Shown here in pieces: positions 12,001 to 15,000 of a stretch of 64,000 bases of DNA. The first letter of the stretch is position 1. Each line of letters starts with the position of its first letter. Position numbers: made by a program. This DNA comes from Escherichia coli (GTDB taxonomy: Bacteria > Pseudomonadota > Gammaproteobacteria > Enterobacterales > Enterobacteriaceae), in NCBI RefSeq assembly GCF_003991155.1, contig NZ_CP031293.1. One strand, 5' to 3'.

Positions 12001-15000
12001 GTCGTCTGGGCGTCAGAACTTACCTGAAAGGTAAGAGTGCGTCTGATGATAATAAGGCGCATCAGTTCGAGCCATTTGTGGAAGTTAACTGGATCCATAA
12101 TACACGGAGCTGGGGTGTCAAAATGGATAATACGGCACTCAGTCAGGACGGAGCTACAAATATTGCTGAAGTCAAAACGGGTGTTCAGGGTAAATTGTCA
12201 GATAACCTGAATGTCTGGGGCAATGTTGGTGTTCAGGCTGGCGATAAAGGGTACAGTGATGCCCAGGCAATGCTGGGTATTAAATATATATTCTAATCAC
12301 ACAGTGGCAGGAGGGGACCTCCTGCCACCTCAGGGTTGTCATAATGAGTTCTGTAATGAAATTTTCTGTTGTTAATGCAGTAGTGCTGCTGTTGCTGATT
12401 GTACTTACTGGTGTTTTTTATATGAAAAAGTCAAAAGAAATTGCAGTTGTTAATATCGATGCTATTTATAATCAGTCTGCCGCCGGAGACATGGCCAGAA
12501 AACATCTGAATGAGGTTAAGAGTATTCTTGAAAAAGGATATGAGGATGCGCAAAAAGTATTCGCAGATAACGCGAATAAAGAGGCGCTGCTTCTTGATGC
12601 CAGACAAAAACTGGAACGACAATATGTTATTGAGGAAAATAGCGCAAAAATGGTGTTATCCCGTGCGATAGATAATGCTATAGGCACATGGAGAAAAGAC
12701 AATCCTAAAAATATTGCCGTATTGTCTTCAGGTGTTGTGCTTGCGCATAACGAGTCAGCTGATATCACCAAAGAAGTCATGACTCTGGTTGAAAAAGAAA
12801 ATCTGGTTTTTAATAAATTACCCAAAGTGGAAGTGCACAATAAGAATGAAGAGAAACCAGAACAAAGTAAGTAATCACTAGATTCTGACGATTTCCAGAA
12901 GGGAGATTCAGCAGGCCAGCATCTGTAATCATTCAGATTTGCTGGCTTGCTGCTAAATATGGTTGCTGAGAAAAATAGCAGGCCAGTAATTTATTCAGAT
13001 TACTGAATATAATAATTTTTCAGGAACGGTTATGCTGAAGGTAGTATGTTTAATCGACACAATTATTTGCTGTGTCTAATATGAGGTGACATTTTTATGA
13101 TCACTGACCAGCAAGACTGACCCGTATTGATTAGCCTGATTATTGGCAACTTATTGGGGTAGTCATTTTGACATCGAATGGGGGAGGTTTCCAGTTAAGT
13201 TCACGAATGCATGATGATTTGCGTTCACATATCGAAGTACTGGTTGACTATACTAAGGATTTTAAGATAACTCACTGATTGTAAGTGGGTTATTGCGAGG
13301 GGGATGATAAATGGTGTCCCCTGCAGGAATCGAACCTGCAATTAGCCCTTAGGAGGGGCTCGTTATATCCATTTAACTAAGAGGACAATGCCGCATGAGT
13401 ATACCCGCTAATGGACTGCGGGGTAAGTACACTGCCGCGCGATTGCTTAAACCCTCGCCATTTATGCCGGGTTTTTATCATTTTTCTTAATGTTTTCCGC
13501 ACGTTCTGCTTTTTGGCGTGCTTCTGCTTTGCGCTTGTTGCTCATGTCGTTACGAATCTGTGCATGACTCATTAACGCGAAGATAAAGGTGCCGCCGCAG
13601 ATGTTCCCCGCTAAAGTAGGTAGTGCGAAGGGCCAGATGAAATCGCTCCAGTGCAGCGTACCGTTAAACACCAGATAGAGGATTTCAACAGAACCGACAA
13701 CGATGTGAGTGGTGTCACCCAGGGCAATAAGCCAGGTCATCAATATAATCACCACAATCTTTGCCGCACCCGCTGAAGGAAACATCCATACCATAGTGGC
13801 GATCAGCCAGCCGGAAATGATCGCGTTGGCAAACATCTCGCTGGGGGTGTTCTTCATCACATCCATGCCGATTTTGACAAATGCATCGCGAGTTTCTTCA
13901 TTAAAGATAGGCATATATTCAAATGCCCACGCCGCAATACCTGTCCCGAGAATATTACCCAGCAGCACGACGCCCCATAACCGCATAAGTAAGCCAACGT
14001 TGCTCATTGTCGGTTTTTGCATGACGGGTAGTACCGCAGTCACGGTGTTTTCGGTAAATAATTGCTGGCGGGCCATAATGACGATAATAAAACCAAAGGT
14101 ATAACCGAGATTCTCCAGCAAGAAGCTGCCCGGCACACCTTCCAGTTCGACATGAAATATCCCTTTTGCCAGTAATGAAGCGCCCATCGACAGACCCGCC
14201 GCAATGGCTGACCACAGTAGTGCCATTGCGTCGCGTTCCAGCTCTTTTTCACCATCCTGGCGGATATGCTCATGAATTGCCATCGCCCGGGAGGGGAGTC
14301 GATCTTCATCTATTTCTATTTTTTTGCCGCGCTCTTTTTCTTCGCTCTCAACTTCAATTTCGTCGCTGTGTTGATCAATTTTGTCGTTGTCCATGGTCTC
14401 TTCTCTTGAATTAGCACGTATAGCTAAAGCGTAGCGGCTTTTTTGCTCGCAACTGGCGGGAGTTACTCTGAAAATGTAGAAAAGGCCGCGTTTGCCTTTT
14501 TCTGTTTCTATAGAATCAAGTAGCCTACAGGGCGGCGATTACCAGGCTATGATCAAATCAGCAAATCAGGGCGTCTGGACATCAGTTGACGTGCTGTTAC
14601 AATCGCCCACACCTAAACAGGCGGATACGGTATCGTTCCGTCATGGATGGCAAACTGCATAAGCCATAAAAAAACAGGGAGACATTTATGAAGCTTCGCC
14701 TGTCGGCGCTTGCTCTGGGAACTACGCTTCTGGTGGGGTGTGCGAGTTCCGGTACAGATCAGCAAGGGCGTTCTGACCCGTTAGAAGGGTTCAACCGCAC
14801 CATGTACAACTTCAACTTCAATGTATTAGACCCGTATATTGTTCGACCGGTCGCTGTCGCCTGGCGTGATTATGTTCCGCAACCGGCGCGTAACGGTTTG
14901 AGCAACTTTACTGGCAACCTTGAAGAACCTGCGGTGATGGTTAACTACTTCTTGCAGGGCGACCCTTATCAGGGGATGGTCCACTTTACCCGCTTTTTCC

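Follow-up and report, generated by a model that had tools for sequence, protein, structure and literature searches.

A putative operon-end stem-loop and an island-specific non-coding spacer at the argW side of the ipuR-upaE island of Escherichia coli

Protective 3' stem-loops, such as REP-type stabilisers and the structures at Rho-trimmed ends, form a class known from E. coli mRNA decay. We analyzed the junction between an autotransporter operon and the tRNA gene argW in a 64,000-nt stretch of E. coli DNA (contig NZ_CP031293.1, assembly GCF_003991155.1), hereafter the window, to which all coordinates refer. The window carries the ipuS/UpaE locus, already known from uropathogenic E. coli, for which the 5' end alone of the upaE transcript has been mapped and a two-gene operon described (PMC6083910). 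The ipuA/ipuB-ipuR-upaE island between dsdC and argW is likewise an already described element of E. coli, catalogued as PAI-CFT073-argW (PMC7545054). argW itself is a proven hotspot for IntS-type prophages and P4-like satellites; elements that use it recombine within the tRNA gene, and the attL/attR sites of KplE1/CPS-53 at argW use the 16-nt core CTGCAGGGGACACCAT (PMC2951348). The genes and sites of the window that are relevant here are the following:

119-1072: dsdC (RefSeq annotation and ORF listing)
1467-2036, minus strand: ipuB
2785-3414: ipuA
3732-4352: ipuR, HTH regulator
4377-12296: upaE, phase-variable autotransporter adhesin UpaE
12344-12874, plus strand: OmpH/Skp-like gene of 176 aa (ORF), 47 bp 3' of upaE
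13311-13326: 16-nt KplE1 core, which is argW sequence plus one extra base; core-genome homology restarts here
13312-13386, minus strand: argW, tRNA-Arg with anticodon CCU

An identical genome (strain 2016C-3878, RefSeq) has the order dsdC, ipuB, ipuA, ipuR, UpaE, 176-aa protein, tRNA-Arg, yfdC and mlaA. The 176-aa product is named either 'hypothetical protein' or 'OmpH family outer membrane protein' in RefSeq, and its match to Pfam OmpH (E = 1e-5, 26.2 bits) lies under the 32.4-bit cutoff. The distance of 47 bp between the autotransporter gene and the ompH-like gene is also found in the related loci L010 and L013, and judged by synteny the two genes are probably co-transcribed. From the stop codon of the 176-aa gene to the 3' end of argW, the junction (12875-13311) measures 437 bp; argW is on the minus strand, with its 3' end abutting the junction, and is convergent with upaE-ompH.

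A sequence-only reading of the window had pointed to this junction as a repeat-rich gap devoid of ORFs, and its coordinates and motifs for the gap, the repeat and the repeat copy proved accurate. ORFs of at least 30 aa in 12875-13311 are only 30-40 aa long and mostly cross its edges, the six frames are filled with stops, and a six-frame translation of the gap searched for a decayed gene or an integrase yielded no frame. That the region might be core sequence conserved in island-free strains, which the same reading had named as the outcome that would count against it, was not what we found, since the gap occurs only in island carriers. Among 5,426 complete E. coli genomes, 248 contained sequence matching the 437-bp junction, and in 232 of them the match covered 80% or more of it; the matches fell at 253 places with a median of one per genome, always at the 3' end of upaE-ompH; all copies were chromosomal and all were unannotated. 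With gap and argW together as query, 5,425 genomes matched, the island-free ones only from 13305-13312 on. On the left side, homology to island-free genomes ends at 1046-1050, within the last dsdC codons, and the left breakpoint (1046/1047) is inside this gene. Comparison with empty argW sites, one of the proposed checks, could draw on two such sites (BL21 and CUVET20-PYO4), in which dsdC is followed by ~97 bp and then argW, so that some 110 unrelated bp are present instead of the gap. Positions 1047-13310 (12.26 kb) stand in place of 108-112 bp of the empty site, with no sequence in common; because of this replacement, the whole 437-bp gap is island DNA and not core. Within the gap, we distinguished the following features:

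12875-12952, plus strand: 3' UTR block of 78 nt that travels with the upaE-ompH cassette (98.7-100% identity in another island)
12909-12952, plus strand: putative operon-terminal stem-loop with 17 pairs, a 2-nt bulge (12938-12939) and an 8-nt loop (TAATCATT)
12953-12976, no strand: spacer of 24 nt between the hairpin and its half-copy, containing the first bases specific to the argW context and a second TTGCTG
12977-13001, plus strand: degenerate half-copy of the hairpin, with left arm and loop, a 6-nt deletion and no right arm
12984-13005, plus strand: weak AT-rich secondary hairpin made by the half-copy, with 9 pairs and a 4-nt loop
13006-13310, no strand: AT-rich non-coding spacer with more G than C, present only with the argW-context island

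The inverted repeat consists of 13-nt arms (12909-12921 and 12940-12952) that form 12 Watson-Crick pairs and one G-T pair, and ATCTG/CAGAT lengthens it to the 17-pair stem, which begins 35 nt past the stop codon of the ompH-like gene. Folding of the plus-strand RNA yields -28.2 kcal/mol (z = -4.1), a stability reached by none of 200 shuffles; the minus-strand RNA is weaker, at -25.6 kcal/mol. When the 437 bp were shuffled 1000 times, 3 of the shuffled sequences held an inverted repeat of comparable quality (13-nt arms, at most one mismatch, loop of at most 20 nt). Searched with a covariance model of the hairpin, neither the window nor nine loci gave a further copy, and the hairpin is a single-locus element (median one per genome), not a dispersed repeat of the REP/BIME or ERIC type. 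When the sequence was searched against Rfam 15 at a permissive threshold of E <= 10, tRNA alone reached threshold and the others (E >= 0.03) were far under the gathering cutoff. An attenuator-like alternative, in which 12940-12952 would pair with 12977-12986, was rejected: its 10 pairs would be much less stable than the hairpin (-28 kcal/mol), which is the first to form, and the stop codon, 35 nt upstream, lies beyond the reach of ribosome influence on the pairing.

The hairpin is linked to the upaE-ompH cassette and not to the argW context. At most 16 genomes matched only the first 78 bp of the junction. In MB06234 and CE0026f, upaE-like and ompH-like genes are located in another island, where two-partner-secretion/CdiA-like genes are their neighbours and ipuA/ipuB are missing. 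Sequence identity of these loci to the window begins at ~4131, within ipuR, and breaks off precisely at 12952, where the pairing of the stem ends. The hairpin and its position right at the distal limit of an upaE-ompH block that can be transferred have apparently not been described before, but neither is surprising. With the loop and the upstream GATTCA as anchors, a scan of metagenomes recovered 38 loci, of which 26 were of the argW type, 10 had a downstream region of the MB06234 type and 2 belonged to a diverged lineage; as a source of new hairpin lineages it returned just the four variants known before, with no gain in covariation.

More distant relatives retain the structure. In loci L008, L009, L012 and L014 (Escherichia sp. 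E2593 and E. coli), the 176-aa protein has homologues that are 78-80% identical to it, and a homologous hairpin is found in the same place (fold z = -4.0 for L008 and -5.7 for L012); the L008 locus is ~89% identical to the window at the DNA level. Downstream of the hairpin, L009, L012 and L014 have a GerE-family gene, and prophage-like genes also occur in the context of the diverged lineage. The UTR 5' of the stem has strongly diverged in these 78-80% relatives while the stem is retained, and GATTCA immediately 5' of the stem is invariant across lineages. Across five distinct sequences, 98.8% of cells in the stem were paired, compared to 20-47% with the partners slid. Two pairs show compensatory changes (A-U to G-C and C-G to U-A), and two more have a change on one side and still pair. 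A shuffle control for this covariation gave 7/500, which is merely suggestive, and the evidence, although of the right direction, is modest because all changes fall on a single lineage split. With pairing kept by compensatory substitutions, on that one split, the hairpin has what is generally expected of a structured cis-acting RNA and may be regarded as a candidate for one. A mismatch in E2593 would be a G-U pair if the RNA were from the minus strand; the strand call from wobble pairs, at 2:1, is not decisive. A homologue in S. enterica diarizonae (63% identity) is followed, right 3' of its stop codon, by an unrelated hairpin (z = -4.3), and locus L013 has no hairpin 3' of its ompH-like gene. 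A search for related loci in genome contigs with the OmpH-like protein gave 0 confirmed loci.

The sequence-only reading had suggested, among other possibilities, a terminator for the autotransporter operon, and this came closest: the upaE-ompH unit ends in this hairpin, which is conserved and covaries, but in this lineage the hairpin falls short of a canonical intrinsic terminator. Similar to rho-independent terminators, it is a stable, GC-containing stem-loop on the sense strand, ~35 nt past what would be the operon's last stop codon and between convergent genes. Unlike them, it has no U-rich tract (~5 or more U in 8) directly 3' of the stem, its loop measures 8 nt, and its 17-pair stem is unusually long. 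The tail holds 4 U in 8 nt after a shortened core stem (UUGCUGCU; TTGCTGCT) and 3 U in 8 after the full stem (CUAAAUAU; CTAAATAT). A consensus terminator scan called nothing at 12909-12952 and found no canonical plus-strand terminator ahead of argW in the window. A d'Aubenton-Carafa-type score, computed with modern energy parameters, was -33 for the window and -22 for MB06234, compared to +23 for a canonical control; it was just positive (+3.8 and +0.7) in the diverged lineage, where the 3' flank is U-rich (UUUAUUGUUG). The control is a canonical plus-strand terminator of MB06234 itself, ~130 nt downstream of the hairpin, and therefore the hairpin need not be the point of termination. The closer resemblance may be to protective 3' stem-loops, with which it shares a stable hairpin at the predicted operon end, the lack of a U tract and an untranslated sequence that follows, although it is a single-locus element and contains no REP/BIME sequence. 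Protection of the 3' end is the mechanism we hold most likely for the hairpin. The plus-strand RNA downstream is G-rich and C-poor (84 G and 48 C in 12953-13311) and would be unfavourable as a Rho loading site; one may speculate that the C-rich, untranslated minus-strand RNA made by read-through from argW could be a Rho loading region.

The remaining 359 bp (12953-13311) have a different character. They contain 37% GC, like the ompH-like gene and compared to 51% in the core, and are found only in the argW context. When we looked for relatives of this segment by blastn (word size 11) in the 5,426 E. coli genomes, PLSDB and INPHARED, island copies alone were recovered; word-7 blastn against all fetched loci gave no match, and an exact scan of 100,044 species representatives with a 23-mer from it gave 0 hits. 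Inspection by eye for a sigma-54 promoter found none. Across the gap, almost every carrier shows 98.9% identity or more, and for this reason conservation of the 359-bp spacer is uninformative on function. The partial direct copy that had been noticed downstream of the inverted repeat is real: AGCAGGCCAG occurs at 12910 and 12977 and ATTCAGATT at 12931 and 12993, collinear and 67 and 62 nt apart. Its local alignment to the hairpin scores 23, compared to 13.7 +/- 2.2 for shuffles, 7 of 2000 of which reached this value, and the covariance model did not detect it at E <= 10. The secondary hairpin made by the half-copy is weak (-10.2 kcal/mol in a 61-nt fold, z = -2.8); in a few metagenome variants its pairing is kept, where one change, A to G, turns a pair into U-G and another, C to T, lies in the loop. 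The half-copy may most simply be a decayed duplicate, left behind when a rearrangement brought the cassette and this flank together. An island-end scar, another of the original suggestions, is partly right: the whole gap is island DNA, and its 12953-13311 part, confined to the argW context, contains the decayed half-copy.

The tRNA-proximal position had also been proposed as the place of an attachment site, i.e., an attL-type junction of an integrase-mobilised island in which the repeats would be recombinase sites or a duplicated core. The gap does adjoin the 3' end of a tRNA gene that such elements use; as at the KplE1/CPS-53 sites, it is the same tRNA gene and the island DNA starts one base past the core. 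However, the gap shows neither a duplicated core nor arm-type similarity, and an integrase is missing. We looked for a direct repeat of the argW 3' end that would mark the far side of the island and found none in the window: the 28-nt 3' end of argW occurs once in the 64 kb, and the 16-nt core, when 3 mismatches were allowed, was likewise present in a single genuine copy, the one additional match (at 28957, with 3 mismatches) being at chance level. No tyrosine integrase gene lies between upaE/ompH and argW, and the sole recombinases are the FimB/E-type invertases IpuA and IpuB. In other strains, intS or P4-type integrases are present beside argW, but none of those flanks resembles the gap, which is unlike any argW-integrated element in the 5,426 genomes. 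In argW-prophage genomes, homology breaks inside the tRNA gene, at ~13360-13366. The empty site is also not the occupied site minus an element; the island replaces ~110 bp without duplication or flanking repeats and has its left end inside dsdC, and the repeats, as part of the predicted operon 3' UTR, move with the cassette to sites that are not tRNA genes. We thus regard an attachment site here as very unlikely. As this is a replacement event without att sites, the island is not self-mobile. In MG710528 ('phage GER2'), a complete tRNA copy abuts the gap and divergence is on the 5' side of the tRNA; the 'attL' features of this record, which are 12 bp long and scattered through an entry that counts the island as phage, were given no weight. 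What could speak for an old phage joint is limited to the 7 bp beside argW (TTTATCA in the sense of the tRNA), which equal the phage-side flank of IntS-type attL and are common to such flanks.

Other readings concern the hairpin itself. Given the close kinship of the carriers and the small covariation sample, hairpin and half-copy might be neutral leftovers; but the structure outlives the flanking UTR in the diverged lineage with two compensatory changes, an analogous hairpin is present in the Salmonella homologue, and the inverted repeat is far above chance, all of which makes absence of function unlikely. Small RNAs derived from 3' UTRs are usually built on a stable, conserved hairpin at the end of an mRNA, and this one, with its invariant GATTCA, could either belong to an independent small RNA or be the end of one processed from the 78-nt UTR. 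Nothing positive emerged for this suggestion, which the sequence-only reading had raised: beyond noise, no Rfam match was seen at E <= 10, promoter-like sites were at chance level (4 found and 3.7 expected), the U tail used by Hfq-dependent small RNAs is absent, and relatives show little conservation of the UTR 5' of the stem, so we consider a small RNA improbable. The hairpin might instead act at the DNA level, as a cassette boundary for exchange of upaE-ompH between islands with the half-copy as a product. Two island contexts lose homology exactly at the last base of the stem, a third diverges within 3 nt of its end, and the half-copy lies only 24 nt downstream; moreover, the hairpin resembles integron attC sites in that it is imperfect, contains extrahelical bases and coincides exactly with the boundary of a cassette. 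Unlike attC sites, it has no RYYYAAC/GTTRRRY core sites (R'/R'' motifs were sought by eye) and no integron integrase, and the other end of the shared block is within the ipuR coding sequence (~4131) and has no matching hairpin. With a single-locus hairpin and no recombinase or transposase conserved across contexts, and with conservation expected to end at a selected RNA element after random rearrangements as well, a recombination site seems quite doubtful. Finally, the symmetric sequence and the GerE-family gene ~160-250 bp 3' of the hairpin in L009, L012 and L014 could point to an operator bound by a regulator of the LuxR/GerE type, for example IpuR. Typical HTH-dimer operators, however, are much shorter than 17-bp arms with an 8-bp centre, no gene follows on that strand in either the window or the MB06234 context, and symmetric double substitutions together with tolerated G-T positions fit RNA pairing better than a fixed recognition sequence; an operator is therefore extremely unlikely.

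The explanation that we favour, and consider probable, is that the gap is the argW-side end of the island and is composed of two unrelated parts, the predicted 3' UTR of the ompH-like gene with its terminal stem-loop (12875-12952) and a spacer (12953-13311). In the first part, the 44-nt stem-loop in the plus-strand transcript of the phase-variable ipuR-upaE(-ompH) operon would fix or protect its 3' end, either as a weak, non-canonical terminator or by blocking 3'-5' exonucleases once transcription has terminated at a more distal point, or both. Such action would restrict read-through into the antisense strand of the convergent argW gene. A stem-loop that defines the 3' end is preferred here because the hairpin is not a canonical terminator in this lineage. 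The second part is AT-rich non-coding island DNA with no recognisable function, in which a decayed half-duplicate of the stem-loop has been left.

A bolder possibility, to which we give little credence, is that the hairpin is the recombination boundary of a mobile upaE-ompH cassette, such that a hairpin-directed joint (single-strand or by replication slippage) moved the cassette among at least three island contexts and 12977-13001 is its footprint, or, in a milder form, that the 78-nt UTR yields a regulatory RNA tied to phase variation. If true, a hairpin serving as a recombination boundary or as a source of a small RNA would be of moderate interest. For the favoured two-part junction, the immediate outcome is a refined right-hand edge of the known PAI-CFT073-argW, which is of low importance beyond annotation. 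For the phase-variable UpaE operon, our data suggest a third gene, OmpH/Skp-like, and a defined 3' end, which may be useful for the design of upaE constructs and for the reading of transcriptomes of uropathogenic E. coli.

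We identified an OmpH/Skp-like gene 3' of upaE, which encodes a 176-aa protein with a hydrophobic anchor at the N-terminus and has homologues at three further loci, as listed below.

12344-12874 of the window: OmpH/Skp-like gene, 176 aa, 3' of upaE
L010 (Salmonella enterica diarizonae locus), 5001-5540: OmpH-like homologue
L013 (homologue-carrying locus), 5001-5552: OmpH-like homologue
L008 (homologue-carrying locus), 5001-5543: OmpH-like homologue

Escherichia sp. E2593 is among the homologue carriers. The Pfam OmpH match of the 176-aa protein was below threshold (26.2 vs 32.4 bits). 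The distance between upaE and the ompH-like gene was 47 bp in E. coli, L010 and L013. Previously, ipuR-upaE was described as a two-gene operon with no mention of the ompH-like gene (PMC6083910). An upaE-like gene and an ompH-like gene were also detected in a second island lacking the ipuA/ipuB invertases, in MB06234 (L004, 12871-24104) and in CE0026f (L003), where the upaE-like gene was truncated by IS elements. Neighbours in this island included EAL and HTH regulators, a CaiF/GrlA regulator and two-partner-secretion/CdiA-type genes, and the RefSeq name of its protein is still "phase-variable autotransporter adhesin UpaE".

Downstream of the ompH-like gene, the spacer at 12953-13311 was markedly skewed towards G over C on the + strand (84 G, 48 C), and this skew carried on from the upstream genes though the spacer is non-coding. 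Two mini-ORFs were predicted within it:

13032-13079: MLKVVCLIDTIICCV, 15 aa, hydrophobic, with a Shine-Dalgarno-like sequence 5' of it
13097-13120: MITDQQD, 7 aa, with a Shine-Dalgarno-like GAGGTGA 7 nt upstream

The 7 bp adjoining argW (13305-13311) read TGATAAA on the + strand. In K-12 and O157 strains, the phage-side flank of IntS/KplE1-type attL has exactly these bases; the empty site and P4-like satellites differ here. An earlier IntS-type prophage joint may have left this heptamer behind as a micro-relic, or it may have arisen by chance. At the other edge, the left island boundary falls within dsdC, at 1046-1072, and therefore the C-terminal tail of DsdC in carriers differs from, and is slightly longer than, that of island-free strains.

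The entire ipu-upaE island was counted as phage sequence in GenBank MG710528 ("Escherichia phage GER2", 1-13210), which calls UpaE a "long tail fiber proximal subunit" and IpuA an "integrasse", and marks three 12-bp "attL" features, one of them inside the junction between the ompH-like gene and argW. Such annotation could mislead searches of phage databases.

A terminator-like hairpin with the tail AATATATATT was observed on the + strand at 12257-12282, within the final codons of upaE; if this hairpin is functional, transcription would be attenuated before it reaches the ompH-like gene. The OmpH/Skp-like protein may be a dedicated periplasmic chaperone serving UpaE, an autotransporter of 2,639 aa.
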